IMG/VR virus record: IMGVR_UViG_3300037502_002518
Coordinates: 5,712 to 69,711 of that record
Source of the DNA: a virus
Lineage: Duplodnaviria > Heunggongvirae > Uroviricota > Caudoviricetes
Direction: 5' to 3' (one strand)
Length of the DNA stretch: 64,000 nucleotides
The translations under genes and the position numbers were made by a program. The stretch's first letter is position 1. Each line of letters begins with the position of its first letter. Of this stretch, positions 2,641-44,196 are shown one piece after another. The notes beneath the pieces were generated by a model that was not told the origin of the DNA, did no database searches, and saw nothing but the letters and a program-made list of their open reading frames with translations.

Positions 2641-2802
2641 ATGAAAATGACAATGGAAGAAATTAGAAATAAAAAGAACAAACTATTTGAAATGATTATG
2701 ATTGAAAAGAAAAAAGGTAATGAGCCAAGTAAAGAGTTGGTTAAAGAATATCGCAAGGCACAAAAGCAACACAAACAGATTGTTAAAGAATTATATTATT
2801 AA
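2641..2802 (+). CDS. hypothetical small basic protein (53 aa)
   Basis: ATG preceded by AAGGAGAATGATTAAG; lysine-rich. Confidence 0.4.
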   Translation: MKMTMEEIRNKKNKLFEMIMIEKKKGNEPSKELVKEYRKAQKQHKQIVKELYY

Positions 2803-2817
2803 TTTAAAAAAAATGTA

Positions 2818-2846
2818 TTGACAATAACAATAATGCATGATATGAT
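2818..2846 (+). promoter_or_regulatory. early promoter TTGACA-17bp-TATGAT
   Basis: hexamers seen in sequence; same upstream context (TGTATTGACAATAAC) as other copies. Confidence 0.55.
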
Positions 2847-2883
2847 TAAGTCAAGTTAAAAAACACTTTAGGAGGAATTATAA

Positions 2884-3456
2884 ATGAGAGAAAACAAATT
2901 TATTTTAGGATTCAATGAGCAAGGAAGTTTAGTTTTAGGTAGCTTTAGAATTAGAGAAAATGATTCAAAAAAAGAGTTTTGTGCTTCTTTTGAAGAGGTT
3001 GAGCCTTTTGTCGCAACGGATTCATATATCTTAGAACGTTTAGAAAATTTAGTTGAGGGTATGGATTCAGATTTGAAGTTTGAGATTTGTGAAAGATTTG
3101 ATGTTAGACCTAGTGAGTTAGCTGAAACAATTTATCAATATGATGGAATTGAAAGTGCGGTAGACATATCACTTTTCCCATATTCTTTTGAAGTTGATGG
3201 TGCTGAAGATGATGTTTATTTTGAATCAGGGGGTTGTGGACAGGTGGATGTTTTTGAAGGCTTTGGTGATGGAGATTTATTTGTAAGTGAAGAGTTTTAT
3301 AATTTGATTAGAGACACATGGAAAGAATATCATTTAAATGAAATTCCAGAAGATAAGCTAGAAGAGATGATGGAGCTATATGAAAAAGAAAAAGAAAAAG
3401 ATACAGACAGTTTAATTGTAAAATATTTAGAAAAAAATATTGCTATAGAATTATAA
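2884..3456 (+). CDS. hypothetical early protein, very acidic (190 aa)
   Basis: RBS TTAGGAGGAATT; long D/E/F-rich segments. Confidence 0.5.
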   Translation: MRENKFILGFNEQGSLVLGSFRIRENDSKKEFCASFEEVEPFVATDSYILERLENLVEGMDSDLKFEICERFDVRPSELAETIYQYDGIESAVDISLFPYSFEVDGAEDDVYFESGGCGQVDVFEGFGDGDLFVSEEFYNLIRDTWKEYHLNEIPEDKLEEMMELYEKEKEKDTDSLIVKYLEKNIAIEL

Positions 3457-3475
3457 ATTAATTTTAAAAAATGTA

Positions 3476-3521
3476 TTGACAACAACCTAAGCTTATGATA
3501 TGATATAGTCATAAGCTTAGG
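3476..3521 (+). promoter_or_regulatory. early promoter unit: TTGACA-17bp-TATGAT with 13-bp perfect inverted repeat CCTAAGCTTATGA/TCATAAGCTTAGG
   Basis: seen in sequence. Confidence 0.6.
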
Positions 3522-3544
3522 AAACAATTTAGGAGGTTTTATAA

Positions 3545-3724
3545 ATGGCTAGTAGATATAAAAGAACGTTTAAGTTTTTCGATACAGAAGACCAAGCAAA
3601 AACATTTTGTGATAATGAGAATAAAAATAGTTATATCAAAAAGAATCATAAAGCGACTTATACAGACTGGACAAGTCAAGACGGAAGTGAAAGTAAATTT
3701 GTAGCATGGTACGTAACAAAATAA
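3545..3724 (+). CDS. hypothetical small protein (59 aa)
   Basis: RBS TTAGGAGGTTTT then ATG; not in supplied track (<60 aa). Confidence 0.45.
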   Translation: MASRYKRTFKFFDTEDQAKTFCDNENKNSYIKKNHKATYTDWTSQDGSESKFVAWYVTK

Positions 3725-3753
3725 AATGATGGTTTCATTAAAAATGTTAGAAG

Positions 3754-4014
3754 GTGGATTTTATGCAGAGGTTAAAAAATACTTTCTCTAAAAGATTAAA
3801 AATAGCAAGAAAACAAAGTGGGCTGTCATTAAGGAAATTAGCACCATTAGTTGGGACTACTTATGTTAGCTTAAATCTTTGGGAAAATGGTAAAGCATTC
3901 CCACAAGAGAGATTTATATACAAAATTTCAGAAGTATTGGATGTTAGTTCTGATTGGCTATTAGGTTTTGACAATGAGTATAATTACTGTCCTCATTGTG
4001 GTGAAAAATTGTAA
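3754..4014 (+). CDS. putative HTH XRE-family transcriptional regulator with C-terminal CxxC (alternative start ATG 3763)
   Basis: RLKIARKQSGLSLRKLAPLVGTTYVSLNLWENGKAFP is a classic XRE HTH. Confidence 0.55.
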   Translation: MDFMQRLKNTFSKRLKIARKQSGLSLRKLAPLVGTTYVSLNLWENGKAFPQERFIYKISEVLDVSSDWLLGFDNEYNYCPHCGEKL

Positions 4015-4058
4015 ATAAAAGGATAATTTGATTTGAATTTGAAAGGGGTTGAATTAAT

Positions 4059-4238
4059 ATGAATAAACTTTTGGTGCAAGTTAACTTAGATTACAATGGG
4101 GAGTATGACTTCAACAATTATGGAATGGAAGTCTACTGGGTAGACAAATATTCACAAGACTTGTATGGAATACAAGGAGAATTGACAAAAGGTGAAGTTG
4201 AAAGCATACCATTTGTCATTCATGTTGAATCTAAATAA
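4059..4238 (+). CDS. hypothetical small protein (59 aa)
   Basis: RBS GAAAGGGG then ATG; not in supplied track. Confidence 0.4.
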   Translation: MNKLLVQVNLDYNGEYDFNNYGMEVYWVDKYSQDLYGIQGELTKGEVESIPFVIHVESK

Positions 4239-4268
4239 TAAAACAATTCAAAAAAGGGAGATATTAAC

Positions 4269-4721
4269 ATGGGAAAATCATATGCAGTTTATTTAGTTGA
4301 TTTAGAAAATAATAGTGAAACGTGTATTGGATTCTTTAAGGACAAAGACGATGCAAAAAAGTACTTTAAAAGAGTTGAGCAAGATATTGAAAAAAACAAA
4401 GAACAGGATAAGTGCAAGGCTGTCATGAGGTTGGTGTGGATTATGGCAAAAAAAAGAAATGTGGGAAGCTTAAAAAGGGGTGACAATATGAATACAAACA
4501 AAGAGAAAGAATTCACTTATAATGGTATTAATTGCAAGGTGTCTTATAATAGAACGGTAAAAGAATTTATATTAGAAGTTGAACGGAAAGATGGGTTGCC
4601 AAAGATTGTACTACTTTTTGGAGCTAAAAGATTTAGCCAACGGTCGCTAAAAATTGCTTACGATGTTGCTAACAAACGTGTCCTGCCTTATATGTTTGGA
4701 GAAAAGAAATACTCTCTATGA
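4269..4721 (+). CDS. hypothetical basic protein (150 aa)
   Basis: RBS AAAGGGAG; no recognised domain. Confidence 0.5.
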   Translation: MGKSYAVYLVDLENNSETCIGFFKDKDDAKKYFKRVEQDIEKNKEQDKCKAVMRLVWIMAKKRNVGSLKRGDNMNTNKEKEFTYNGINCKVSYNRTVKEFILEVERKDGLPKIVLLFGAKRFSQRSLKIAYDVANKRVLPYMFGEKKYSL

Positions 4722-4796
4722 GCCTCTAATCGCCTCTGAGGGGCATGCTATTGTAAATAAAACTAAGATTTTATTTATAAATAGTAAACAATGTTG

Positions 4797-4824
4797 TTGA
4801 CAAACAAAATGGTTATGCTATAAT
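4797..4824 (+). promoter_or_regulatory. promoter TTGACA-16bp-TATAAT
   Basis: hexamers seen in sequence. Confidence 0.55.
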
Positions 4825-4846
4825 GATTATATAATCAAAAAAGGAG

Positions 4847-5041
4847 ATGACTTTTATGAATAGCAATAGAGAAGTTGAAAAAATTATAAAATCTATTCAA
4901 AGGGATTTAGAAAAAAACAAGCAGGAGATTAAAGAAGTTGAATATGGTCCAATAGAATACAACTTCATCAATGGCAAGATTAAACAGGCAGAAGATACAC
5001 TTACTTATATAGATATGATGTTAAATGACACTGTATCTTAA
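4847..5041 (+). CDS. hypothetical small protein (64 aa)
   Basis: RBS AAAGGAGATG. Confidence 0.4.
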   Translation: MTFMNSNREVEKIIKSIQRDLEKNKQEIKEVEYGPIEYNFINGKIKQAEDTLTYIDMMLNDTVS

Positions 5042-5068
5042 AATTAATAAAAAAAGTAAATAAGTCTA

Positions 5069-5097
5069 TTGACAAGTTAAAGATGATGTGTTATGCT
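5069..5097 (+). promoter_or_regulatory. early promoter TTGACA-17bp-TATGCT followed by 7-bp dyad TGCTTAA/TTAAGCA and leader AAATCTGAAAGGAAG
   Basis: seen in sequence. Confidence 0.5.
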
Positions 5098-5140
5098 TAA
5101 GTTGTAAGGTTAAGCAAGACAAATTAAATCTGAAAGGAAG

Positions 5141-5425
5141 ATGGTCACTATGATAAACAAAGAAAAGGTACTTAAAAAAGCAGGGGAATTGGGAATGGAG
5201 TTAGGTTGTTATTCAAAGTCGATTGATGACATGACACAACCTCAATTAAAGAAGGTTCTGGATAACATGGAATACGAAGCAGATACAGACGTTTCAATCA
5301 AACGTAAAAAACATGTTGTCCAGATTAGCATTGTAGACTTCAAGGACAGACAAGAGATTGACCTTCTGGCAATCACAAAAGATGAGTTCATTAGTCGATA
5401 CGGAAATGAAAGATACCTAGATTAA
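5141..5425 (+). CDS. hypothetical protein (94 aa; start may be ATG 5150)
   Basis: ORF after conserved leader. Confidence 0.5.
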   Translation: MVTMINKEKVLKKAGELGMELGCYSKSIDDMTQPQLKKVLDNMEYEADTDVSIKRKKHVVQISIVDFKDRQEIDLLAITKDEFISRYGNERYLD

Positions 5426-5452
5426 TTTCTAGGTATCTAAAATAAAAAGGAG

Positions 5453-5671
5453 ATGTTTGAGGTGAGTTTAGATTTTAACGATTTAAAGACAATTGAAATA
5501 ATTCTAAAAGAAGATAAACGTTTTGCACAAAATTCAATTGACTATCGATACAACAAAGCGGGTTCAATTCATTTGTCTGATTCAGATAGAAGGTATGTTG
5601 AATCACAAAAAAACAAGGTTGAATTGATTGATGACCTGTTATCAAAAATTAATACTATAAAGGTTTATTAA
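5453..5671 (+). CDS. hypothetical protein (72 aa)
   Basis: RBS AAAAGGAGATG. Confidence 0.45.
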   Translation: MFEVSLDFNDLKTIEIILKEDKRFAQNSIDYRYNKAGSIHLSDSDRRYVESQKNKVELIDDLLSKINTIKVY

Positions 5672-5685
5672 AAAATAAAAAGGAG

Positions 5686-5901
5686 ATGTTTAAAATGAAC
5701 AAAAATGAAAACAAAACAAACACGTTACTACTGGTAGTTATTGCAGGTGCAATCCTATTCTTTGGGATTTTTGCAATGAACAAGTTTAATGAAAGCGAAG
5801 AAGAAAAAGAACGAGAAGAACGATATGAACAGCTAGAAAAACAGAAAGAAGAGATTGATAAAGTTAACGAGTATTTAGACCTTAGAGAAGAGCTTGAATA
5901 G
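5686..5901 (+). CDS. small membrane protein (one TM helix followed by an E/K-rich tail)
   Basis: hydrophobic stretch LLLVVIAGAILFFGIFAM. Confidence 0.5.
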   Translation: MFKMNKNENKTNTLLLVVIAGAILFFGIFAMNKFNESEEEKEREERYEQLEKQKEEIDKVNEYLDLREELE

Positions 5902-5915
5902 AAGTTAACAATTAG

Positions 5916-5960
5916 TTTACAGCCTACCATTAAAATGTTATAATTTAAATGGTAGGCTGT
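5916..5960 (+). promoter_or_regulatory. promoter unit: TTTACA-17bp-TATAAT with 13-bp perfect inverted repeat ACAGCCTACCATT/AATGGTAGGCTGT spanning from the -35 region to beyond the -10
   Basis: seen in sequence. Confidence 0.55.
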
Positions 5961-5987
5961 ACACAATAAAGCAGGAGATGATGAGAA

Positions 5988-6188
5988 ATGGGAAACTATA
6001 TCTATGATGAGAAGACAGACTTATATTACAAGAAAGAAGTAGAAGACGTCAAAAGTATTGATGATTTATTAGATGAATATAACAATGCAAAAATGCTATA
6101 TAAAATCTTTAATGATGATTCATATCTTGAGAAAATGGAAGAGGTAAAAGAAGAGATGAAAGGGATGATTGATAATGAAAGAAATTAA
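5988..6188 (+). CDS. hypothetical small acidic protein
   Basis: RBS GCAGGAGATG. Confidence 0.45.
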   Translation: MGNYIYDEKTDLYYKKEVEDVKSIDDLLDEYNNAKMLYKIFNDDSYLEKMEEVKEEMKGMIDNERN

Positions 6189-19426: not shown

Positions 19427-19798
19427 ATGCTTCTTTTATATATGAGTTTGACTGGGAACGTGAGAGAGTTTGTTGAAAAAACAGGCTTGAAAAATAGAGA
19501 GATAGAGCCTACAAATCCATTCTTTGAAGTTAATGAGGACTTTGTAATTGTAGTTCCATCATATGAAGGATATATAAATGAAGAAGTTGAAGACTTTTTA
19601 TCATATAAAGACAATTCAAAGTTTTTGAGAGGTTTTGCATCAAGTGGAAATTTGAATTTTGATGAACTATTTTGTGTGAATGCAAAGCAGTTGTCAAAGA
19701 AGCTCAATAAACCTCTTTTTTTTAAGTTTGAATATAGTGGTACAGACAGAGATGTTAATTTGTTTTTAGAAAGGTTGGGAGAAATTGAAAAAGGTTGA
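19427..19798 (+). CDS. nrdI: NrdI flavodoxin-like protein
   Basis: N-terminal [13 protein letters not shown] (flavin-binding loop), size, position. Confidence 0.75.
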
Positions 19799-20525
19799 GC
19801 TAAAAAAGGGGAAAGAAAGTGAGAATTATTTTCACTTAAATAATTTGTTAAATATTCCAAAAGATGGAAAGATACAACTAAATAAAGACAAAGAGGCTGT
19901 AAAAGAATATTTCCTTGAGTACGTGAATCCAAATACAATGTTCTTTCATTCATTAGAAGAAAAGTTGGGATATTTGATTGAAAATGATTATATCGAAGAA
20001 GATATGATTAACAACTATAGCAAGGAATTCATTAAAGACTTATTTAAAAAGGCATATGACAAGAAGTTTAGGTTTAAAAGTTTTATGGGAGCATATAAGT
20101 TTTATTCCCAATATGCTATGAAGACAAATGATGGAAAGTGGTTCTTAGAACGATATGAAGACCGTGTTGTCTTTAACGCTTTAAAGCTTGCAATGGGAGA
20201 CGAAAGTTTAGCAGATTCGCTGGTTGAAGAAATGATAAACCAACGTTATCAACCTGCAACTCCAACATTTTTAAATGCAGGGAAAAAGAGACGTGGAGAA
20301 TTTATTTCATGTTTCCTGCTTACAATTGATGACTCTATGAATTCAATTGGACGTGCAATTAATTCTGCTTTGCAACTATCGAAGCGAGGTGGAGGGGTAG
20401 GAATCGGATTATCTAACATTCGTGCCAACAATGACCCAATCAAAGGTGTTGAAGGTTTATCGGACGGTGTTGTTCCTGTCATGAAGTTGTTAGAGGATTC
20501 GTTCTCATATGCCAATCAACTGGGT
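19785..20525 (+). CDS. nrdE: class Ib ribonucleotide reductase alpha subunit NrdE, exon 1
   Basis: [24 protein letters not shown] motifs; ends ...SYANQLG. Confidence 0.8.
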
Positions 20526-20848
20526 TGACATACAGGCTCAGTATAAAACGGGTTAACTGCTGGAACTTCTTTAGAGCTTAATGCGCCACAACGCAACTGG
20601 AAACGGTAATCGTAAAGGCTTAAAAAGTATTAAGATTAGAAAATCAGCATCCACTCCTCTAAGTGTTAAAACATAAGAGGAAGGTTCAACGACTAAGTGA
20701 CAGCAAAAGTGATTTTGTTGTCCGAATCCGTTAAATGTTTAATAAATAACACTCTTTATTAAATATGAAATATATAGTCTGTTCTTTAGGGAGACCTAAA
20801 GAGTGTAGCAGAAATGACTGCACCCCACGTTAGTGGAGTAACAAAAAG
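20526..20848 (+). mobile_element. group I intron 1 in nrdE (323 nt, no ORF)
   Basis: R-like AACGACTAAG and S-like ATATAGTCTG P7 elements; 5' exon ends U, intron ends G; splicing restores ANQLG|QRSGSGVTYL. Confidence 0.7.
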
Positions 20849-21265
20849 CAAAGGTCTGGTTCTGGAGTAACGTACTTGAATATCTTCCACCCAGATGTGA
20901 TTGACTTTCTTGCAGTAAGAAAAGAGAATGCAGATGAAAAGGTTAGAATTAAAACTTTATCTCTTGGTTTAGTTGTCCCAGACAAATATTATGAGCTTGT
21001 AAAAAACAATGAGAATATGTATCTTTTCTCTCCTTATGATGTTGAAAAAGAATATGGAAAACCTTTCTCATATATTGATATTACAAAAGAATATGACAAC
21101 ATGGTTAATAATAAAAATATTCGTAAATCTAAGATTAAAGCGAGAGAATTAGAAACTGAAATTAGTAATCTTCAAAATGAAAGTGGTTATCCTTATATTA
21201 TTAATATTGACCATGCAAACAAAGCCAACCCAGTTCATGGAAAAATTATCCAGAGTAACTTGTGT
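20849..21265 (+). CDS. nrdE: NrdE exon 2
   Basis: ...YLNIFHPDVIDFL ... SNLC. Confidence 0.75.
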
Positions 21266-21542
21266 AAACAAATGCACCTTTAAGTAGGAATGCTTATCGA
21301 AAATCCTGTTAAACGGGGAAACCCTCACTTGAGACAATCCCGTGCTAAATTTATTTGATACATTATGTTTTTTTAAATAATAAATGCCGAACGACTATCC
21401 CACTATGGGAGTACACTACAAGCCTTTGGTGGTGGAAAAGCAGGACATCCAGAACGGATGATGATATAGTCTGCTCTATATGGTGACATATAGCTGTGGT
21501 TAGCCCACGCTCTAATTTTAGCGAGATTAGAGGAACAAAAGG
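21266..21542 (+). mobile_element. group I intron 2 in nrdE (277 nt, no ORF)
   Basis: AACGACTATC and ATATAGTCTG elements; junction restores SNLC|VEIFQV... with the expected 23-residue spacing to DISCNLGS. Confidence 0.7.
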
Positions 21543-22571
21543 GTAGAAATTTTTCAAGTGCAAACGGAGTCAAAAATCAATGATGACCAAACTTATGAAG
21601 TTTTAGGTAGTGATATTTCTTGTAACCTTGGGTCAACCAATATCACAAATTTAATGGAGTCACCAAACTTTGGAAAATCAGTAGAGGTTATGACAAGAGC
21701 ATTAACAAATGTATCTGATATGTCAAGCATTGATTCAGTCCCATCAATAAAAAATGGTAATGATAGATACCACTCTATTGGTCTAGGAATGATGAACCTT
21801 GCTGGGTTCTTAGCAAAAAATCAAATTCATTATGGTAGTGATGAATCACTAGAGTTTGTTGACAAATACTCTATGCTTTTAAATTATTGGACTCTTGTTG
21901 CAAGTAATAAGATTGCAATTGAAAGAGATGAGAAGTTCTATGAATTTGACAAATCAAAGTATGCTAGTGGGGAATATTTTGATGAATACTTTAAGATTTT
22001 AGAACTTGATTTTAAACATGACAAGGTTAAAGGTTTGTTTGGAGGTGTCTATATTCCAACAATGAAAGATTGGAACGTGTTAAAGGATGCTGTTATGACT
22101 TATGGCTTATACTCAGCGTTTAGGCTTGCCACACCTCCGACAGGAAGTATCAGCTACATCAATGAAGCTACAGCTTCAATTCATCCAGTCATTTCAAGAA
22201 TTGAAGAAAGAGTTGAAGGTAAACGTGGTAAAGTTTATTATCCTGCTCCTTATCTTTCAGAAGAAACAATTCCATATTACAAGTCAGCATATGATATTGA
22301 CCAAAGAAAAATTATCGATGTGTATGCTACAGCACAAAATCATATTGACCAAGGTTTGAGTATGACATTATATACAAAATCAAATTTTAATGAAGGTCTT
22401 TATGAATGGAAAGTAGGAACAGCTTATCCTACAGAGAAAACGACAAGAGATTTAAACATTTTCAGAAACTACGCTTGGTCTAAAGGGATTAAGTCAATTT
22501 ACTACATTAGAACGTTTACCGAAGATGGCGATACAATTGGTGCAAACGAATGTGAAAGCTGTAGTGTATAA
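21543..22571 (+). CDS. nrdE: NrdE exon 3 (includes C-terminal CESC)
   Basis: DISCNLGS, C-terminal redox cysteines. Confidence 0.75.
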   Translation, partial: VEIFQVQTESKINDDQTYEVLGSDISCNLGSTNITNLMESPNFGKSVEVMTRALTNVSDMSSIDSVPSIKNGNDRYHSIGLGMMNLAGFLAKNQIHYGSDESLEFVDKYSMLLNYWTLVASNKIAIERDEKFYEFDKSKYASGEYFDEYFKILELDFKHDKVKGLFGGVYIPTMKDWNVLKDAVMTYGLYSAFRLATPPTGSISYINEATASIHPVISRIEERVEGKRGKVYYPAPYLSEETIPYYKSAYDIDQRKIIDVYATAQNHIDQGLSMTLYTKSNFNEGLYEWKVGTAYPTEKTTRDLNIFRNYAWSKGIKSIYYIRTFTEDGDTIGANECESCSV

Positions 22572-23577: not shown

Positions 23578-24228
23578 TTGGCATTAGTTATTAAAAAGGA
23601 CGGTTCAACAAATTACTGGGATAGTGAAAAAATTGTAGAAGCAATTATGAAATCAAGTGATAGAGTAAGCAAGAAAAAGCAACTGACAAAAGAGCAGATA
23701 AAATCCATTGTTGATGGAGTTGAAAAAAATGTATCATCATTTGATACGATTTATACATCAGATATTCACGACATGGTACTGTCTCAATTGCAAATTTTTA
23801 ACAAAAGTGTTTATAGAGAATATAAGATTTATCGTGACTATAAGAAAAAATTTAGCGATTCTTTTATAAATGTCACAGAGTATTCAAACAAGATTGTGTA
23901 CAGTGGGGACAAAGAGAATGCAAACAAAGATTCTACTTTAAATTCAACAAAACAAGCGTTAATTTCAGAGGGCATTATGCGTGAATTCATGAGAAACTTT
24001 GAGCTTAGAAAAGAGTGGGTAAAAGCTCATGATGATGGGTGGATTCACATTCATGATATGGCAAACAGATACCTTGGAGGTATTAATTGTTGCATTTTTG
24101 ATATGGACAATCTACTAAAAGATGGTTTTGAGATGAATGGTTCAAAATACTTTGAACCAAAATCAGCACAAACCGCTTGGGCTGTGATTGGAGATGTGAC
24201 ATTAAGTGCATCTGCGCAACAGTACGGT
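23578..24228 (+). CDS. nrdD: anaerobic (class III) ribonucleotide reductase NrdD, exon 1 (ATP-cone)
   Basis: N-terminal ATP-cone-like sequence; TTG start after RBS AAGGAGAG. Confidence 0.7.
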
Positions 24229-25095
24229 AAATAATTGCCGTAATAAAACCTGCTAACCAGCAAATGCTGGGTGTCTATTAAAAATAGGCTAACGGTGAAA
24301 CCTTAACAGATAATGCTGATGGCAATACCGTGCTTGACTCCATAAATAAATGAAAAGGGGGTGAAAATATGGAAGAAGTTTGGAAGAGTATAGACGATTT
24401 TGAAAATTATATGGTGAGTAACTATGGTAGAGTAAAATCCATCGATAGAATTATAAAAGAAAATGGTAAAAAAGGTTATTTTAAAAAAGGTGTTGTTTTA
24501 AAGGGTCAACCAAATAAAAACAATGGAAGAATATATGTTAACCTATACAACACTAGGGAAAAGAAAATTAAAAATGCGATTGTTGCCAGACTAGTTGCGA
24601 AAGCTTTTATAGACAATCCTAAAAATCTCAGAGAAGTTAATCATATAGATAGAGATGTAACAAATAACCATGTAGACAATTTAGAATGGGTAAGCCCTAA
24701 AGAAAACATGAAACACCTTGAAAATAAATATGGTTTTGATTTTGGCAGAATACCTGTTATTGGAAAACATAAAGAGACTGGGGAAGAAGTTTATTTTTCT
24801 TCAATAAAAAATGCCACTGATTGGCTTAGTGAAAAACAGGGAAAAATTGCTTATGCATCTGGAATAAGCAACTGTTGTAAAAGCACAAGAAAATCTTATA
24901 GAGGATATAAGTGGGAGTCAAGTTTAGAGACTATCGAAAGCATAGATTGACAACAAAAAGCTAGTTGACAATTGAAGAAGCGAGTAGAGTAGGATATGTG
25001 GTGAAATTCCCAATCCGAAACGGCAGGCAACGACTAGCAATCGTTGAAGATATAGTGCAAATAAGTAACCAGTAGGGAAACCTACATCTTATTTG
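24229..25095 (+). mobile_element. group I intron 1 in nrdD (867 nt) carrying an HNH homing endonuclease ORF
   Basis: AACGACTAGC element, structured flanks, internal HNH ORF. Confidence 0.7.
24369..24950 (+). CDS. intron-encoded HNH homing endonuclease (NUMOD4-like N-terminus YMVSNYGRVKS; HNH core EVNHIDRDVTNNHVDNLEWVSPKEN)
   Basis: HNH motif read directly from the sequence; RBS AAAGGGGGTG. Confidence 0.85.
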   Translation: MEEVWKSIDDFENYMVSNYGRVKSIDRIIKENGKKGYFKKGVVLKGQPNKNNGRIYVNLYNTREKKIKNAIVARLVAKAFIDNPKNLREVNHIDRDVTNNHVDNLEWVSPKENMKHLENKYGFDFGRIPVIGKHKETGEEVYFSSIKNATDWLSEKQGKIAYASGISNCCKSTRKSYRGYKWESSLETIESID

Positions 25096-25296
25096 GGTTT
25101 CAGTATTCCAAACATTGAATCAATCGTAGCTCGATATGCCGAAAAATCATATACAACACACTATGAATACTTTATTGACAAAGGTATTGATGATAACAAA
25201 GCTCAAGAGCTTGCTGAAGAAATGACTATTAGAGAGATTGAACAAGGGTATCAAGGGTTTGAAACCAAGTTGAACACTGTCTCAAATTCGCTGGGT
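25096..25296 (+). CDS. nrdD: NrdD exon 2
   Basis: in-frame segment between two introns. Confidence 0.6.
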
Positions 25297-25597
25297 TAGT
25301 TATATGGCTCACCTTACTGTAAACGGTAAGGATAATAGGTGGTGAACCTGCAAAAGCAGGGTGTGTATTAAATTAATATGCTAACGGTAGAACCTAAATC
25401 TTTTGACAAGGCAATACCGTGCCAAGTTTAAAGAGAAATCTTTTTAAAGGTGTAACGACTAAGATGTACGTCCTAAGTGTATACACATATGGATATGAAA
25501 TCTGTACAGACAGAGTGAAATTCTTTGTTTGGAAGCGCCACCCACCTAAAGCTTAAAGCTATGGTGAAGATATAGTCTACACTTATAGAAATATAAG
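25297..25597 (+). mobile_element. group I intron 2 in nrdD (301 nt, no ORF); 5' part closely resembles intron 1
   Basis: AACGACTAAG and GAAGATATAGTCTAC elements; shares AACCTGC-AAAGCAG...CTAACGGT...GGCAATACCGTGC block with intron 1. Confidence 0.7.
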
Positions 25598-26863
25598 GTT
25601 ATTGTGCAAATCCCTTTCGTCTCCATTTCATTTGGTTTAGACACGTCAAAATGGGGCAGAATCATTTCTAAGAAAATGTTGGAAATACGTGAACGTGGTA
25701 TAGGAAGAGACAGGATTTCAGCGGTGTTCCCGAAGCAAATTATGTTTATTCGTAGTGAAATCAACAAAAATGAAGACAGTCCAAATCATGACATTTATTT
25801 AAAAGCAATTGAATGTAGCAGAAAACGTTTGTATCCAGATTATTTAAGCTTAGACTCACCAGAGACGAATAATCTTGCAGAGATTTATGAACGCTCTGGA
25901 CAGGCAGTGATAGCAATGGGATGTAGAGCGTATTTAAGCCCTTATGAATATGAGGGTAAAGAGATTTACAACGGTCGTTTTAACATTGGAGCAGTCAGTT
26001 TAAACTTACCTAAAATGGCAATTGAAGCGAATGGCAACAAAAGTAAGTTTTTAAAATTGATTGATAAATATTCTGAAATGGTTTTTGAAATTCATGAAGA
26101 TTATTACCAAAGACTTTCACAGGTAAAGGCTTCAAGTAACCCACTTCTATTTATGGAAGGTGGCTCATTTAAAAAGCTAAAGGCAGATGAAACAATTGAA
26201 GAGTTACTAAAAGGAGCAACAGCATCATTAGGATACGTTGGTGTTGAAGAAGCAATGGTTGCATTAACTGGGGAAGGAATTACAAAGAATAAAGATTTCT
26301 CCATTGAGACAGTGCAAAGGCTAAAAGATAATGTCAATAAAGCATCAAACAAATACAATAGACTTGGGGCTTTGTACAGTACCCCCGCAGAAAATATTAT
26401 CTACCGTTTTAATAATATTAATCGTGAACAATATGGAGAAATTGACGGTGTAACAACGAGAGAATACATGACAAATTCTTTTCATGTCCCTGTTTTTGAA
26501 GATGTTTCAGTATTAGAGAAGATTGATTTTGAGTCGAACTTTCACTCTATCGCAACAGGTGGAAGAATTTCATATTGTGAGTTCCCTTACAATGTAGATT
26601 CAAAGATTTTAAAACAAGCCATTGATTTTGCAATGGAAAAAGGTTTATACTATGGTGTCAATGTTATTTCAGCAACATGTAATGATTGTTCTCACTCTGG
26701 TGATTTTGAGGATTGCCCAGAATGTGGTTCAGACAATGTGACATCAGTTTCTCGTGTATGTGGATATTTAAGTTTTGGAAAAATTAAAGGGGATTCACGA
26801 TATAACCTTGGTAAGCAAGCAGAGGTAAGAGAAAGAGTAAAACACACATTTGGAGGTTGCTAA
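25598..26863 (+). CDS. nrdD: NrdD exon 3 (glycyl-radical domain, RVCGYL motif, C-terminal Zn site CNDCSHSG...CPECG)
   Basis: glycyl radical motif SRVCGYLS. Confidence 0.75.
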   Translation, partial: VIVQIPFVSISFGLDTSKWGRIISKKMLEIRERGIGRDRISAVFPKQIMFIRSEINKNEDSPNHDIYLKAIECSRKRLYPDYLSLDSPETNNLAEIYERSGQAVIAMGCRAYLSPYEYEGKEIYNGRFNIGAVSLNLPKMAIEANGNKSKFLKLIDKYSEMVFEIHEDYYQRLSQVKASSNPLLFMEGGSFKKLKADETIEELLKGATASLGYVGVEEAMVALTGEGITKNKDFSIETVQRLKDNVNKASNKYNRLGALYSTPAENIIYRFNNINREQYGEIDGVTTREYMTNSFHVPVFEDVSVLEKIDFESNFHSIATGGRISYCEFPYNVDSKILKQAIDFAMEKGLYYGVNVISATCNDCSHSGDFEDCPECGSDNVTSVSRVCGYLSFGKIKGDSRYNLGKQAEVRERVKHTFGGC

Positions 26864-28332: not shown

Positions 28333-28524
28333 ATGAATATTCCAGAAAACGTGAAGAAGTATGCAAGCTATAACATGCATCTTGAATCAGATATGCTTTT
28401 AGAAATTATTAAAAAAAGAAGATTGAATATGGCATATCGAATGACTGACGAAGAAAAGTGGATTGTACAAAACAAAGAGTCTTTTGTAAAATATTTCAAT
28501 AGTGAAAAAGGAGATTCTCAATGA
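28333..28524 (+). CDS. hypothetical protein (63 aa)
   Basis: RBS GAGGTGAGAGCATG. Confidence 0.45.
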   Translation: MNIPENVKKYASYNMHLESDMLLEIIKKRRLNMAYRMTDEEKWIVQNKESFVKYFNSEKGDSQ

Positions 28525-30764
28525 GAAAACTAGTTGTCTTACGTGGCGCTCCTGCCTCTGGAAAAAGCACATTCGTTAAAAACCACAACTTGGAAGACTA
28601 TACAATTAGTACGGACGACATTAGATTACTCTATGGTAGTCCAATAATTGGAGAAGATGGAAATACGTCAATATCTCAAAAAAACAACAAGCAAGTTTTT
28701 GAGTTGATGTTTGATGTTTTAGAACATAGAATGTTGAATGGTGAATTTATTGTTGTTGATGCCACTCACTGCAATAAAAAAGACTTTAACAAGTACAAGT
28801 CATTGGCTAAGTTGCATCGTTACAGAGTTTATGTGGTGGATTTTAACAGAACCTTAGAAGAGTTAAAAGAAAATAACGAAAAGAGAAAATTTACATCTAA
28901 GTTTGTTCCCGAGCATGTAATCGAAAAAATGCACTTTAAACAACAATCTTGGGAGATTCCAAGCTGGGCAAATGTAATAAAGGAAGAAGATTTCCACGAG
29001 TCCATCATTGGAAGTAAGAGATTCAACTATAACAATTGGGAGGAAATTCACCATATTGGGGATATACATGGTTGTTATGATACACTTATGAATTTTGTTG
29101 GTGAATTTTTAAATCCAGAACACCTCTATATCTTTACTGGGGATTTATTTGACAGAGGAGAACAAAATAAGGAAGTTTTAAACTTTATGTTGAACAACTA
29201 TTACAAGGACAATGTTGTTTTTATCGAAGGAAATCATGATACTCCAATGAACTACTATGCTAACAACAGACCAGATTTAATTAAGAATAGAGTGTTCAAA
29301 GAGAGTACAATCCCTCAAATTGAAGAAGGGCTGTCCGACAAAGAGATTGTTGAAATGAAAAGGAAAATTAGACATGCAATGAGACACTTTAAAGATTATG
29401 TTCATTACACTTTTGGAGATGACGATGGAGATAACGTAAAAGTTTTTGTCTCACATGGAGGACTTTCTAACAACCCAATGGTATCAATGTCCATGATTCC
29501 CTCTGTTCAATTCATTAGAGGTGTTGGAGATTACAGTTTAGATATTGACAAGAATTGGTCAGAAAGTAATTCAAACATTTTGCAGATACATGGTCATCGA
29601 AATACTTTTGAACACCCTATTGTGGCAGGAAAGAAATCTGTCAATTTAGAGGGTGGTGTCGAATCTGGTGGAGATTTGCGAGTATACACACTATATAAGA
29701 ACGAGCATGGTCTTGTTTTTCAATATTGTGAAGAATACGATAGCCAAGTAGAATCAAAAAACGAGGTAAAAACAGATGAAGAAAATCTAGTTGATAAAAT
29801 GAGAAACAACAATTTTATTCAAGAAAAACAACTGGGTGACAACATCAGCTCTTTTAATTTTACTAGAAAGGCATTTAAAAAAGGTGTTTGGAATGACTTG
29901 ACAGTAAAGGCAAGAGGATTATTTATAAACACCCACTGTAATGAGATTGTGGCAAGGGGTTACGACAAGTTTTTCAATATAAATGAGGTTGAGTCTACAA
30001 AAGAGGAAAACCTAAAAAGAGGTTTAAAATTTCCTGTTCGTGTATATGAAAAACCAAATGGATACCTTGGTCTTCTTGGATATAATAGTGAAAAAGATGA
30101 GCTTGTATTTGCATCAAAATCACAAACGAATAGTCCTCATGCAAAATGGTTTAAAGAATTATTTTACAAAAAAACAACAGAAATGTCACGATATTATATT
30201 AAGAATTATTTAAAAGAGCATAATTCATCTTTAACGTTTGAAGTAATTTCATTTAATGACCCACACATCATAGAGTATTCAGAAGAGGATATAATCTTAC
30301 TCGATATTATTAAACGTGATATTGATTTTAGCAAAGAGCCTTATGGAAAAGCGGATGGAGATTATAGTTTGTCTGAATCTGTAACAACTCTTGCAGGTAT
30401 TATGGGTTGGAATTGTAAAAAATTACTTGCTATCTTTGGTAGTTATGAACAGTATCATAGTTGGTACAAAAGAGAAATGACCCAAACAACTAAGAAAATT
30501 GAGGGATATGTCATTGAAGACAGCAAAGGGTTTATGTTTAAAATTAAGATGCCATACTATAATTTTTGGAAGCAGATTAGGACAGCAAAAGATATGTATG
30601 CAAAAGGAAATTTGAATATAGATTCACTATATGAAAGAACTCATAATAGACTTGCTACAAAATGGATTATCAATGAATTTGAGAACATAAACAAAGAAGA
30701 ACTGAAGTCAATGTCAATTATTGATTTTAGAAACTATTTTAAAGAGAAAGAAGGAACATTTTAA
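28521..30764 (+). CDS. tri-domain polynucleotide kinase-phosphatase with C-terminal RNA/DNA ligase-like nucleotidyltransferase domain (Pnkp-like RNA repair enzyme)
   Basis: N-terminal P-loop GAPASGKST; calcineurin-type phosphoesterase GDIHGCYDTL, GDLFDRG, GNHD; nucleotidyltransferase motif I KPNGYLGL in C-terminal third. Confidence 0.6.
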   Translation: MRKLVVLRGAPASGKSTFVKNHNLEDYTISTDDIRLLYGSPIIGEDGNTSISQKNNKQVFELMFDVLEHRMLNGEFIVVDATHCNKKDFNKYKSLAKLHRYRVYVVDFNRTLEELKENNEKRKFTSKFVPEHVIEKMHFKQQSWEIPSWANVIKEEDFHESIIGSKRFNYNNWEEIHHIGDIHGCYDTLMNFVGEFLNPEHLYIFTGDLFDRGEQNKEVLNFMLNNYYKDNVVFIEGNHDTPMNYYANNRPDLIKNRVFKESTIPQIEEGLSDKEIVEMKRKIRHAMRHFKDYVHYTFGDDDGDNVKVFVSHGGLSNNPMVSMSMIPSVQFIRGVGDYSLDIDKNWSESNSNILQIHGHRNTFEHPIVAGKKSVNLEGGVESGGDLRVYTLYKNEHGLVFQYCEEYDSQVESKNEVKTDEENLVDKMRNNNFIQEKQLGDNISSFNFTRKAFKKGVWNDLTVKARGLFINTHCNEIVARGYDKFFNINEVESTKEENLKRGLKFPVRVYEKPNGYLGLLGYNSEKDELVFASKSQTNSPHAKWFKELFYKKTTEMSRYYIKNYLKEHNSSLTFEVISFNDPHIIEYSEEDIILLDIIKRDIDFSKEPYGKADGDYSLSESVTTLAGIMGWNCKKLLAIFGSYEQYHSWYKREMTQTTKKIEGYVIEDSKGFMFKIKMPYYNFWKQIRTAKDMYAKGNLNIDSLYERTHNRLATKWIINEFENINKEELKSMSIIDFRNYFKEKEGTF

Positions 30765-32435: not shown

Positions 32436-33152
32436 ATGGACAAAATAATGGGATATGATAGAGCGCTTGTTGATGGTCTAGTTGCGGAAGAGAACTTTAC
32501 AGAGCTTGCTTATGCGTGGGGACACAAACAACCCGAAGAATTTGAAAAGATTCTACAAGAGTGGTTTGATAACAATATTCCTTTTAGATTGAAGTCAAAT
32601 TCAGAAAACTTCTTTAAAGAAGGGTTGTACTTTATGATAGATGCTCAAAAGGGTAAGACAGATGTTTTCCTATCTGAAGATAAAGATTTTGAAATTGAAG
32701 GGCGAGTATTAAGAAGATTTTTTGACAACAAGACGAATTTGTCTGACTCAATTAAAAATCAATTTGATAAAGAATATAGGGTTGTAACAATTCCCAGTGA
32801 AGTTGGAATGTACATCAATACATGCAAAGAGAATGAGTTAAGGTTAATTGAATCATTATATTATATTGGGAGACGAGCAGAGAGTAATTATTTAGACTTT
32901 GCTGACACTTGGATTATAAATAACCAAAGAGAGTACATTGTTGCCTTCATGATGAACAATTGGAACACTGATGTCCAATATGAATTAAGTGTCACAGAAG
33001 TTGTAGATGAAATTGTTGACAATGGAACACCATTAGGAATGTTTTATATTTCATTTGATGAAATATTGCACACTTTAGATAAAAAACTTTTATCTATGGC
33101 TATCGAAGAGACACGAGAAGAGAATGAAATAAAGTTTTATAAAAAGTTTTAA
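32436..33152 (+). CDS. hypothetical protein (238 aa)
   Basis: RBS AAAGGAGATG. Confidence 0.5.
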   Translation: MDKIMGYDRALVDGLVAEENFTELAYAWGHKQPEEFEKILQEWFDNNIPFRLKSNSENFFKEGLYFMIDAQKGKTDVFLSEDKDFEIEGRVLRRFFDNKTNLSDSIKNQFDKEYRVVTIPSEVGMYINTCKENELRLIESLYYIGRRAESNYLDFADTWIINNQREYIVAFMMNNWNTDVQYELSVTEVVDEIVDNGTPLGMFYISFDEILHTLDKKLLSMAIEETREENEIKFYKKF

Positions 33153-33159
33153 CTGAAAA

Positions 33160-33192
33160 ATACAGTCCAGATTGTGGGCTGTATTTTTTTTA
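33160..33192 (+). terminator. rho-independent terminator (ATACAGtCC...GGGCTGTAT plus T9)
   Basis: seen in sequence. Confidence 0.7.
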
Positions 33193-33212
33193 TTTTTATT
33201 TCAACAAAACAG

Positions 33213-33241
33213 TTGACACCTGCCAAAATAAATAGTATGAT
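33213..33241 (+). promoter_or_regulatory. promoter TTGACA-17bp-TATGAT with TGCCAAAATAAA in spacer
   Basis: seen in sequence. Confidence 0.55.
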
Positions 33242-33265
33242 TAACTTAACTTAAAAGAAAGCGAG

Positions 33266-33487
33266 ATGAAACCATTGAACAAACAAGACTTATTTAACTA
33301 TCATCTAGGTGGAATGAAAGAACAGATTGAATTAAAGAACCAATATGACAAATGGAGAGAAGAAAACGAAGGCGTTCACAATGTTTACTATCCATGGAAG
33401 CTACCAAATGCAACAGAGTTCAATCGGCACAGGGTTCTATTAAATAAGTTAACATTGGAAATTGAACGTGAATTATCTGGTAGGTAA
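33266..33487 (+). CDS. hypothetical protein (73 aa)
   Basis: ORF. Confidence 0.45.
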   Translation: MKPLNKQDLFNYHLGGMKEQIELKNQYDKWREENEGVHNVYYPWKLPNATEFNRHRVLLNKLTLEIERELSGR

Positions 33488-33512
33488 AAGAGTAGTGTAG
33501 AAGGAGAGAAAA

Positions 33513-33752
33513 ATGAAAATATTTATTCAATATGGAATGATAACAGAAGAATATAAAGTGGAATATAATGACTTTGGCAGGGTTAAGCAAGGCATATTGA
33601 AACGACTAGGAAATATAAGTGCATCAAAAAGAGCTGAAAAGGAAAGAACTGTATTAAAAAGAAGGATTAAAGAATCGAGTACGATGGATGATTTTATTTT
33701 TGGAATCGGCACTACGAGATGGAGAGTATGGGTTGAGGAGATGGATAAATGA
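33513..33752 (+). CDS. hypothetical protein (79 aa)
   Basis: RBS GAAGGAGAG. Confidence 0.45.
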   Translation: MKIFIQYGMITEEYKVEYNDFGRVKQGILKRLGNISASKRAEKERTVLKRRIKESSTMDDFIFGIGTTRWRVWVEEMDK

Positions 33753-33949
33753 TTAATAAATTTGAAAATATCTATCTGAAAGCTGAACAAGGAACGTTTG
33801 ACCAAGAATATGTTAGTTTATTAGGGGAAGGTAACTTTGTCACTATGTCAGTGGAGCTACTGGAATCAGAATGTGTAAAGCAAGGCGTGGATTTTAGGAT
33901 GTTTTTAGAATATGCAATAAACAGAAAAGAAGAGGAGATGAAGAAATGA
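33749..33949 (+). CDS. hypothetical protein (66 aa)
   Basis: coupled ORF. Confidence 0.45.
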   Translation: MINKFENIYLKAEQGTFDQEYVSLLGEGNFVTMSVELLESECVKQGVDFRMFLEYAINRKEEEMKK

Positions 33950-34176
33950 TTATAACCAATAAAGAAGCTATACGGTACGACTATAGTAATGACTGTCTGG
34001 TAATAGATGATGAATACCTTGTTGATGAAGATAGATATTCTGTATTAGATATAAAAGAACCTTTAGGAATGAAAGCATTAGGTAGGATTTATTTTCATTC
34101 ATACAGCAATCTTGATTACACGACAGGTGAACCAGTTGAAAAAGCAGTCATTTCTGGTGGAGAACGAGGGGGTTGA
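33946..34176 (+). CDS. hypothetical protein (76 aa)
   Basis: coupled ORF. Confidence 0.45.
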   Translation: MIITNKEAIRYDYSNDCLVIDDEYLVDEDRYSVLDIKEPLGMKALGRIYFHSYSNLDYTTGEPVEKAVISGGERGG

Positions 34177-34426
34177 GGGAAAATACTTAAAACATGGAGT
34201 TAGGGTATACACTGAGGAACAGGTTAAAACAATTATTTTAAAAGGTTTATGCGAAGACAATGAAGAATTAAATCCTAAATTGCCTAATGATGTTTGGGTA
34301 TTATTAGAAGAATTGTCTAACAACAAGGCTAAAAACAAGTCAAAAAGAGCTAAAGACATTCTTCAAAAATATTCAAAAATAGACTTTAGAACAGGAGAGA
34401 AGGATAGTGAATCTAGAAGATATTAA
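34112..34426 (+). CDS. hypothetical protein; start uncertain (overlaps upstream ORF by 65 nt)
   Basis: ORF. Confidence 0.35.
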   Translation: MITRQVNQLKKQSFLVENEGVEGKYLKHGVRVYTEEQVKTIILKGLCEDNEELNPKLPNDVWVLLEELSNNKAKNKSKRAKDILQKYSKIDFRTGEKDSESRRY

Positions 34427-34637
34427 AGATAGATATGTGGATTATGAGTACGATTTTAATTTAAAGAAAGAGCATGTGAATTGGCTCATTGAACAGGCAG
34501 AAAAGATTGAGCAAATCAAAAAGATTGTAATCGAGTCTACAGACACAGATAATTTGTATTTTAATGACGATGGGTCAATTAAGTATTTAGGCGAAAGAGA
34601 AGTTTTAAATGAGATTGAGAGGTTATCAAACAGTTAA
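34407..34637 (+). CDS. hypothetical protein (76 aa)
   Basis: ORF. Confidence 0.4.
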   Translation: MNLEDIKDRYVDYEYDFNLKKEHVNWLIEQAEKIEQIKKIVIESTDTDNLYFNDDGSIKYLGEREVLNEIERLSNS

Positions 34638-42858: not shown

Positions 42859-44196
42859 ATGGATTTTATTTCGTTGGTAGAAAATGGAGAAAAAGGAGAG
42901 GTTATTTTGAATTTAAACAAAAATGAACTAGAAGCTATTATGATTTTAGATGAGATTAAAAGCACATCATCAAGAAATGACAAAGAGACAATCTTAAAAG
43001 AGCATCAACATCATCAAGAATTTAGACAGATGATTGAATTCTTGCTAGACGATTCAATCACAACAGGTATCAAAACAAAGAAGTTGTCAAAATTTATTGA
43101 CAAGTCAGAAAAAGAAAATGGCATGGGAGGTATTCTTGAAGTTATAGACTACCTAAGAGTTAATAATACAGGTAGTGATAATGACGTTATAGTCGTTACA
43201 AGCTTCCTTCAAGATTTAGAAGATGACTATGACAACCTACAAGAGACCTTATCTCAATTGTTTTGCAAACAGCTTAAAATTGGAGTCACTGTTAAAACTT
43301 TAAATAAAGTATATGGCAAAGGCACTGTCAAAAAGATTGAAGTCATGCTTGCTAAAAAATATGAGGAAGACAAACATAACCTTGACAGCTTTACTTTGAC
43401 AACAAAGCTTGATGGAATCCGATGCATTGCTTTAAAGTTGGACAGTGGTGATGTAAAATTCTTTACACGTCAAGGAAAGCCAATTTTAGGTCTAACAGAA
43501 TTGGAAACGAGTTATGAAATTATGCCAAATGGTTACGCTTATGATGGTGAACTATTACTGAATGAAGACCTACCAAGCGATGAACTCTTCAGAAAGACAC
43601 AAAAGGTTGTCCGTAAAGATGGAGAGAAAAAGAATGTTAAGCACATTCTTTTTGATATGATTCCATTGGTAGAATTTGAAGCTGGTGAATCCACACTAGA
43701 TTATGAAAGTCGAAGAACAATTTTAGAAGCAATGTTTACAGAAGAAAACATTGAAGTAACACCAGTTCTGTATTCTGGCAGTGACAAATCAATGATTGAT
43801 TTTTACCTTAGAGAAGCAGTCCTTGACCAGAAAGAAGGTATTATGATTAACAAAAATGATGGTCTTTACAAAACAAAACGTACAGACGACTTGCTAAAGG
43901 TTAAAGTGTTCCATACGGTTGATTTAGAAATAACTGGATATGGAGAAGGTGAGGGGAAATACAGGGACATGCTAGGTTATCTTGTTGTTGACTACAAAGG
44001 AAACCCTTTACGTGTTGGCTCTGGACTGTCTGATGAAGAGCGTATAATTCTCTTCCGATATGCAGATGAATTAGTTGGAAGAATTGTTGAAGTGTCCTAC
44101 TTTGAGGAATCACAGAATGAAGATGGCAAGTTATCATTGAGATTTCCTGTATTTAAAGGGTTTAGAGATGACAAAGATGAGCCAAGTCATAACTAA
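42859..44196 (+). CDS. ATP-dependent DNA ligase
   Basis: adenylation motif I KLDGIRC (KxDG), size 445 aa, OB-fold C-terminus. Confidence 0.7.
   Translation: MDFISLVENGEKGEVILNLNKNELEAIMILDEIKSTSSRNDKETILKEHQHHQEFRQMIEFLLDDSITTGIKTKKLSKFIDKSEKENGMGGILEVIDYLRVNNTGSDNDVIVVTSFLQDLEDDYDNLQETLSQLFCKQLKIGVTVKTLNKVYGKGTVKKIEVMLAKKYEEDKHNLDSFTLTTKLDGIRCIALKLDSGDVKFFTRQGKPILGLTELETSYEIMPNGYAYDGELLLNEDLPSDELFRKTQKVVRKDGEKKNVKHILFDMIPLVEFEAGESTLDYESRRTILEAMFTEENIEVTPVLYSGSDKSMIDFYLREAVLDQKEGIMINKNDGLYKTKRTDDLLKVKVFHTVDLEITGYGEGEGKYRDMLGYLVVDYKGNPLRVGSGLSDEERIILFRYADELVGRIVEVSYFEESQNEDGKLSLRFPVFKGFRDDKDEPSHN

Follow-up and report, generated by a model that had tools for sequence, protein, structure and literature searches.

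Within a 64,000-nucleotide (nt) stretch of DNA from a virus of the class Caudoviricetes (IMG/VR record IMGVR_UViG_3300037502_002518, positions 5,712 to 69,711; the whole stretch is referred to here as the window) lies a cluster of genes for ribonucleotide reductases (RNRs), in the order nrdH (glutaredoxin-like), nrdI, nrdE, nrdF, nrdD and nrdG, with genes for a Pnkp-like RNA repair enzyme, a DNA ligase and the alpha subunit of DNA polymerase III (Pol III) nearby. Pieces of the large (alpha) subunit of a class Ib RNR are encoded by three open reading frames (ORFs) on the same strand, which a program-made list places at 19785-20528, 20876-21283 and 21558-22571. In our view, positions 19785-22571 of this nrdH-nrdI-nrdE-nrdF-nrdD-nrdG cluster hold a single class Ib nrdE gene, interrupted by two unrelated group I introns of subgroup IA and yielding a NrdE protein of 728 amino acids (aa) through splicing, a reading to which we assign a probability of about 0.93.

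The gene is composed of three exons, all on the + strand. Exon 1 (19785..20525) comprises 247 codons, opens with a TTG start and closes with the residues ANQLG (GCC AAT CAA CTG GGT), its final base being T20525. Exon 2 (20849..21265; 139 codons) starts with CAA AGG TCT, the first codons of QRSGSGVTYL, and finishes with TTG TGT, the latter being the Cys codon of a conserved SNLC motif. Exon 3 (21543..22571; 342 codons and a stop) begins with GTA GAA ATT and encodes VEIFQV...CESCSV before its stop codon. The length of each exon is divisible by 3, and when 20526-20848 and 21266-21542 are taken out, a continuous frame of 728 codons is obtained. On this spliced product Pfam recognizes PF08343, PF00317 and PF02867 (the RNR_N, all-alpha and barrel domains), with exon 1 contributing RNR_N, Ribonuc_red_lgN and the beginning of Ribonuc_red_lgC, and with the barrel domain unbroken over residues 175-708.

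Comparison with known proteins places both junctions to the codon. The spliced NrdE aligns from end to end with the solved NrdE structures 9l6o and 1pem (E = 2e-257), gap-free at both junctions, and the spacing between SNLC and DISCNLGS is 23 residues, identical to that in Salmonella NrdE (PDB 1pem). The NrdE proteins nearest to it come from Bacillaceae and from large phages of that family. Of 8000 database homologues, the best, mostly from Bacillaceae, reach up to 76% identity, and many of them are exactly 728 aa long and cover the product completely (100%) from residue 1, while the intron-less NrdE of large Bacillus phages matches the spliced product in a single piece by tblastn, at approximately 72% identity. 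In 116 uninterrupted homologues, the 10 residues on either side of each junction are free of gaps, and the residues before the two junctions, G247 and C386, are invariant. A preliminary description of this DNA, prepared from the letters and a list of ORFs, had placed the junctions at 20525/20849 and 21265/21543 and had predicted the 23-residue spacing; both prove to be exact, and the comparison with intron-less nrdE genes that it proposed as a check reveals no gap where the exons meet.

The two intervening sequences have the hallmarks of group I introns. Intron 1 (20526..20848; 323 nt) and intron 2 (21266..21542; 277 nt), both on the + strand, each follow a U and end in a G (G20848 and G21542, respectively), and both are ORF-less, with stops in all three frames and a longest internal ORF of 43 codons (with a TTG start); in both respects the preliminary description was right, including its statement that neither carries a homing endonuclease gene, so that no internal gene of the kind that marks a homing intron is present in either. 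Intron 1 opens directly with an in-frame TGA codon, and intron 2 has an in-frame TAA six codons in (21281-21283), which does not agree with an intein; group I introns of phages and Bacillus are described as generally having a stop of this kind, in frame and at their start or close to it (PMC2504315, PMC3984707). The motif AACGACTA is found at 20688-20695 in intron 1 and at 21390-21397 in intron 2, and ATATAGTC at 20772-20779 and 21464-21471, respectively, in line with the earlier claim that both introns contain elements resembling the R and S elements of P7. The two motifs are also enriched across the window: AACGACTA occurs six times (0.77 expected from shuffled sequence), with four of these copies within group I introns, and ATATAGTC seven times (1.96 expected), three of them within group I introns. 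A covariance-model scan, another of the checks proposed earlier, places both introns above the gathering score of the Rfam group I family RF00028, which is 50 bits: intron 2 scores 84 bits (21256-21493) and intron 1 52.5 bits (20507-20801), with E values, calculated for the whole window, of 6e-20 and 2e-10, respectively. No other Rfam family, and thus no group II intron, matches the window at E <= 0.1, and neither intron has an ORF, where group II introns usually encode a reverse transcriptase.

Secondary structures were derived by hand from minimum-free-energy folds, to which the P3/P7 pseudoknot was added. For intron 2, helices P1 to P9, P7.1, P7.2, P9.1 and P9.2 can all be drawn with canonical pairs. 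Its P1 (21262..21277) is formed by exon bases GUGU and the first intron base A (21262-21266), which pair with the guide UGCAC (21273-21277) over five base pairs, placing a U·G wobble (U21265·G21274) at the splice site; this wobble is retained in all six homologues. The P7 region (21393..21471) is formed by GACUA (21393-21397) and UAGUC (21467-21471), and enclosed within it are P7.1, P7.2, the 3′ strand of P3 (21439-21445) and P8 (21446-21460). For intron 1, helices P1, P3 to P9, P7.1, P9.1 and P9.2 can likewise be drawn with canonical pairs; P2 is absent, and the intron has an extended P5 arm with a GAAA loop, a 12-base-pair, AU-rich P8 and a single hairpin, P7.1, between P7 and the 3′ strand of P3. 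The P1 of intron 1 (20519..20542), as found in the minimum-free-energy fold, pairs the exon bases ACUGGGU and the first intron base U (20519-20526) with the guide GGCUCAGU (20535-20542) over eight base pairs, and the splice-site wobble is U20525·G20536, which homologues at this site likewise retain. P7 (20691..20779) is again formed by GACUA (20691-20695) and UAGUC (20775-20779), and encloses P7.1 (20699-20722, with a GUGA loop), the 3′ strand of P3 (20725-20732) and P8 (20735-20766). The z-score of the intron 1 fold is -5.7. In the IA2 layout, the type of the T4 td and Twort introns, P7 is separated from the 3′ strand of P3 by P7.1 and P7.2, and P9 is followed by two additional hairpins, P9.1 and P9.2 (compare PMC2504315). 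Intron 2 has all four of these peripheral hairpins and is IA2-like, and intron 1 has P9.1 and P9.2 but only P7.1 of the other two. The two introns share only about 30 nt, around J8/7-P7, and are not copies of one another.

Covariation among homologous phage introns supports the drawn structures. For this analysis, endonuclease genes were excised from the homologues, the remaining sequences were aligned with MAFFT, and pairs were counted on the hand-drawn structures and on slid (shifted) controls. In the intron 2 family (six sequences), 87.3% of cells are paired and 41 of 79 pairs are compensated (slid controls: 34-46% and 7-12 pairs). In the intron 1 family, a set of three sequences gives 88.2% paired and 40 of 103 compensated (controls: 35-40% and 4-7), and a set of five (with Brochothrix phage A9, Lactococcus phage AM1 and the IMG/VR loci L020 and L018) gives 88.3% and 36 of 69 (controls: 33-44% and 6-12); the percentages of paired cells are biased toward the unshifted register, as the structures were drawn from the window sequences, and the counts of compensated pairs are less so. 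None of 500 shuffles matched the observed values in any run. Compensatory changes affect nine of the 10 pairs of P7.1 in the intron 1 family and five of the seven pairs of P3 in the intron 2 family. P7 itself is unchanged in all five intron 1 homologues and all six intron 2 homologues and, as it never varies, covariation speaks neither for nor against it. The exon-guide pairing also co-varies: in phage A9 the Leu codon CTG is replaced by CTC (CUGGGU to CUCGGU in the RNA), and a C-to-G change in the guide (GCUCAGU to GCUGAGU) compensates for it, and the two P1 pairs next to the wobble have changed together in relatives of intron 2 that reside in thyA (UA to CG and GC to AU).

In the proposed model, nrdE would be transcribed as a single pre-mRNA, in which each intron would fold to a group I core with P3-P8 and P4-P6 domains and a P3/P7 pseudoknot. 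The last exon bases would pair with the internal guide to form P1, with the U·G wobble at the splice site, and free guanosine bound in P7 would attack after the splice-site U. The 3′-OH of the exon would then attack after the terminal G of the intron, joining the exons in frame to give the 728-aa NrdE. Translation of the unspliced RNA would halt at the first codon of intron 1 (TGA) or, in the case of intron 2, at its sixth codon (TAA). Several points weigh against this reading. Intron 1 clears the Rfam threshold by just 2.5 bits, and Rfam draws its P1 wrongly; the thermodynamic fold of intron 2, taken alone, is not significantly better than those of shuffled sequences (z = -1.9); P10, the pairing with the 3′ exon, is minimal by inspection, with one base pair in intron 1 and two in intron 2, so that the 3′ splice sites are set by the reading frame and the terminal G and not by RNA pairing; and splicing of the nrdE transcript in this phage is something that we infer. 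In addition, no intron-less allele of this phage was found, which makes direct proof of gain or loss impossible.

Some of these points would also be accommodated if the introns were of group I descent and one or both no longer spliced, leaving nrdE as a decaying pseudogene while the phage relied on the RNR of its host or on its own nrdD. The marginal Rfam score of intron 1 and the weak P10 of both introns would suit such a state, and the phage does encode a class III reductase (nrdD/nrdG). Yet the core helices are all intact and made of canonical pairs, P7 and J8/7 match the family consensus, and the three exons are open, keep the conserved residues and are 69-76% identical to functional homologues, where a dead gene would likely show frameshifts or stops; we therefore regard decay as highly improbable. 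Still less probable, in our estimation, is that the three ORFs are translated separately and assemble into an enzyme without any splicing, as described for the divided nrdA gene of Aeromonas phage Aeh1; a split reductase that works and has no intron is reported (PMC3653736). Potential starts do exist at a TTG nine codons into exon 2 (20876) and at a GTG five codons into exon 3 (21558). However, exons 2 and 3 themselves start without start codons, what lies between the exons folds into complete ribozymes and, once taken out, leaves a protein that is correct to the codon, a split at this point would part the conserved Cys of SNLC from the next Glu of the same motif, and the two halves of the Aeh1 gene are separated by an endonuclease gene and not by an intron.

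A third explanation, that the likeness to group I introns is a product of chance in AT-rich sequence between three unrelated reductase fragments, has in its favour the low G+C content of the region (37-39%) and nothing beyond it. We consider it refuted for practical purposes, given E values of 6e-20 and 2e-10, covariation far above both controls, and the hundreds of phage records that have similar, intron-like sequences. What remains is a single nrdE gene in three exons, separated by two compact, ORF-less group I introns, as the preliminary description had stated and as the Rfam scores, the exact restoration of the frame, the P1 to P9 folds and the covariation all indicate.

The insertion sites of the two introns, after ANQLG (site A) and after SNLC (site B), fall in conserved codons, the Cys of SNLC presumably being the thiyl-radical residue and the QLG.R segment presumably lying within the specificity loop. 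Reductase introns and inteins are known to insert in conserved codons, and RNR genes are the phage genes most often interrupted by introns (PMC3653736). Exon boundaries of comparison phages were placed by tblastn, and the resulting map confirms sites A and B as recurrent insertion hot spots, with related introns in Brochothrix, Lactococcus and Staphylococcus phages as well as in uncultivated viruses. Site A is occupied by an ORF-less intron in Brochothrix phage A9 (327 nt) and in IMG/VR locus L020, and by an intron with an endonuclease gene or ORF in the Lactococcus AM1 group (1019 nt, with an HNH gene in P8) and in IMG/VR locus L076 (1018 nt, with an ORF). Site B is occupied by an ORF-less intron in Lactococcus phage P1048 (356 nt) and in L076 (253 nt), and by an intron with an endonuclease gene in Staphylococcus phages S2G3 and pSco-10 (941 nt, gene in the P6 loop). 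Around site B, phage A9 has an intein at SNL/C, locus L027 has an insertion of approximately 840 nt, and in locus L050 the 3′ end of a relative of intron 2 lies directly upstream of exon 3. The first Twort intron and the first pSco-10 intron were considered as further site-A introns and rejected: each sits one codon upstream of that site and shows no sequence relationship to intron 1.

Among the known systems, the nrdE gene of Staphylococcus phage Twort has the same overall plan, being a class Ib gene in three exons with two group I introns, which are self-splicing (PMC3653736) and which by our mapping are 429 nt (I1) and 1087 nt (I2) long. Over 97 nt, the core of intron 1 (P3-P5) shares 77% identity with Twort I2. 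The sites differ, however, with I1 at NQG/GKR and I2 at AP/TQSISY, approximately 200 codons downstream of site B, and Twort I2 encodes the HNH nicking endonuclease I-TwoI (PMC3653736, PMC3984707), whereas both introns described here lack an endonuclease gene. In Brochothrix phage A9, the nrdE gene is interrupted by three introns and an intein (PMC3653736); its ORF-less 327-nt intron, at SNQLG/QRNGAG, is a full-length homologue of intron 1 with many compensatory changes and an identity of approximately 50-78%, depending on the segment. In contrast to the window, A9 carries its intein at SNL/C instead of a site-B intron, and has additional introns after GGGVG and after LAP. In the Lactococcus 949-group (AM1-AM12, P1048 and LW81) nrdE is likewise split, as annotated in GenBank: in AM1, a homologue of intron 1 occupies precisely site A, but with an HNH gene that fills P8 and extends into the 3′ strand of P7, and P1048 has an ORF-less homologue of intron 2 at exactly site B. 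None of the 949-group phages mapped has both sites occupied, and other sites are used (after HSIGL, and after the Pro before TGSISY).

The Twort-like Staphylococcus phages S2G3 and pSco-10 (Twortvirinae) have an intron at exactly site B with a P1-P2 segment 89-93% identical to that of intron 2, whereas their introns are 941 nt long, carry the endonuclease gene in the P6 loop and are only approximately 45-65% identical over the remaining ribozyme. Intron 2 shares its IA2-type ribozyme family with the thymidylate synthase (thyA) introns of two Bacillus phages, KKP_4047 and PJN02 (compare beta22 and T4 td), that of KKP_4047 being alignable over 83% of intron 2; they differ in their host gene and in a P1 that has been re-matched (exon GCGU with guide GCGC, versus GUGU with GCAC), and the PJN02 intron in addition has an endonuclease gene in P6. 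A counterpart in layout is L076 (IMG/VR UViG_3300006139_000018, minus strand, 2683-6062), in which both sites are occupied, with an intron of 1018 nt between ADQLG and QRPGA and one of 253 nt, without an ORF, between MSNLC and TEIFQ; the same three-exon layout thus already exists elsewhere. Its site-A intron differs in having a 233-codon open stretch, presumably an endonuclease gene, and its NrdE is only 41-45% identical to that of the window. Outside the phages, introns occupy four sites in the chromosomal nrdE genes of the Bacillus cereus group and often lack a complete endonuclease gene (PMC2504315, PMC2248736). The introns IVS2-IVS5 found there are comparable, as they are phage-like group IA/IB introns that interrupt a class Ib nrdE in frame, with a stop at or near the start, and differ in being chromosomal and present as one per strain (PMC2504315, PMC2248736). 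In vivo splicing has been demonstrated for nrdE, nrdF and recA introns of this group (PMC3653736, PMC2504315). In IMG/VR, the core pattern of the intron 2 type (TAAATGCCNAACGACTA...ATATAGTCT) is present in more than 119 viral contigs, and a three-block pattern of the intron 1 type in only three, A9 among them; another of the three, L018, sits in a gene other than nrdE. Seven loci obtained with a first intron 1 pattern were dropped, as they contain no nrdE and have almost no similarity to intron 1.

From the missing endonuclease genes the preliminary description had concluded that the introns are old and streamlined, and this part of it is not established, as same-site homologues exist with such genes (AM1, S2G3, pSco-10 and, at site A, L076) as well as without them (A9, P1048, L020 and, at site B, L076). 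In the relatives, the endonuclease genes are placed where the window introns have plain hairpins, namely in P8 for intron 1 and in the P6 loop for intron 2, which fits loss of the gene as well as never having had one. No full-length relative more than approximately 70% identical was found for either intron, and searches of IMG/VR with the spliced NrdE, an exact-protein look-up of NrdF and megablast of nrdE and of window positions 1-25000 against phages returned no close relative of the phage. Intron 2 has a mosaic character. Its P1-P2 segment shares 93% identity with the same-site intron of S2G3, identity with the PJN02 thyA intron is 79-96% between P8 and the 3′ end, and the part from P3 to the 3′ strand of P3 is approximately 55-73% identical to each of the two. 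When positions 1-25000 were compared by megablast with 50,697 phage records, the matches listed (12 of 13 records) consisted only of pieces of intron 2, 36-108 nt long (within 21253-21323 and 21433-21542), in phages of Staphylococcus, Bacillus, Proteus and Aeromonas. The Staphylococcus NrdE proteins share only about 40% identity with that of the window, and the ends of intron 2 resemble introns of distant phages far more closely than the host genes resemble one another, which points to module exchange or constraint and not simply to age; as judged from these alignments, the pattern would suit an exchange of modules between introns, or strong constraint, no less well than it would suit great age.

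It is possible, if rather doubtful, that intron 2 is a recent recombinant of modules from different introns, its P1-P2 ‘address’ module being the part that resembles the same-site nrdE intron of Staphylococcus phages and its 3′ catalytic module (P8 to the end) the part that resembles a thymidylate synthase intron of a Bacillus subtilis phage. If this were true, ORF-less introns could pass from one nucleotide-metabolism gene to another, and between phages whose hosts belong to different genera, through module exchange, with no homing endonuclease of their own. As neither intron encodes a homing endonuclease, any spread must come about by recombination between co-infecting genomes or through an endonuclease acting in trans. 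ORF-less introns can be moved by endonucleases encoded elsewhere, a process termed ‘collaborative homing’ (PMC3984707), and mobilization in trans, for example by the endonuclease of the neighbouring nrdD intron, is a further possibility.

The nrdD gene (23578-26863, +) is also split into three exons (23578-24228, 25096-25296 and 25607-26863, all +) by two further, probable group I introns. Intron A (24229-25095, +; 867 nt) contains an ORF (24369-24950) for a 193-aa NUMOD4 (HNH-type) protein, and intron B (25297-25606, +; 310 nt) has no ORF and scores 48 bits with RF00028, just below the threshold. Once joined, NrdD aligns as a single piece to that of Enterococcus phage VRE9_3, which is uninterrupted and agrees with the junctions SAQQYG/GFSIP and NSLG/QIPFV. 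A 3′ splice site of intron B at 25597, near the end of the Rfam match at 25598, was rejected because it adds three residues relative to the uninterrupted homologue, and the terminal G was placed at 25606. Further along the window, a gene resembling that for Pol III alpha (52124-55939, +) has a match to the Pfam Intein_splicing domain (E = 4e-11) over residues 749-876 (approximately 54368-54751), between the finger and HHH domains, which suggests a mini-intein. Four introns and this intein match make the stretch rich in self-splicing elements. Shortly after the reductase cluster, on its downstream side, a 747-aa ORF (28521-30764, +) combines kinase-like P-loop, metallophosphatase and T4-type RNA ligase domains in a manner similar to Pnkp and other RNA repair enzymes. 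An additional copy of AACGACTA is located at 33601-33608 (+), where an Rfam scan of 32800-34600 gave no intron at E <= 0.01, and another, at 43190-43197 (-), lies inside the DNA ligase ORF.

These introns also illustrate how easily such elements are overlooked. At its gathering score, RF00028 finds three introns in 14 comparison loci (L001-L014), and most of the introns mapped in the comparison phages, including those of A9, P1048, S2G3 and pSco-10, are missed; for this reason, Rfam was not used for an intron census. Whole-window Rfam scans likewise missed both nrdD introns, that is, two of the four introns of the operon. Scanning at default settings gives too low a count of phage IA introns, above all of those that carry endonuclease genes, and phage genes that appear split merit a targeted intron search. 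For annotation, this means that the three reductase ORFs are to be joined as one 728-aa NrdE, and that nrdD is to be treated likewise. The locus is an ordinary example of a well-described phenomenon and introduces no new principle; it extends the catalogue of phage reductase introns by two new variants in sequence, found in a new phage but at known sites, and its value lies in a correct annotation and in a data point on intron hot spots and mosaicism.

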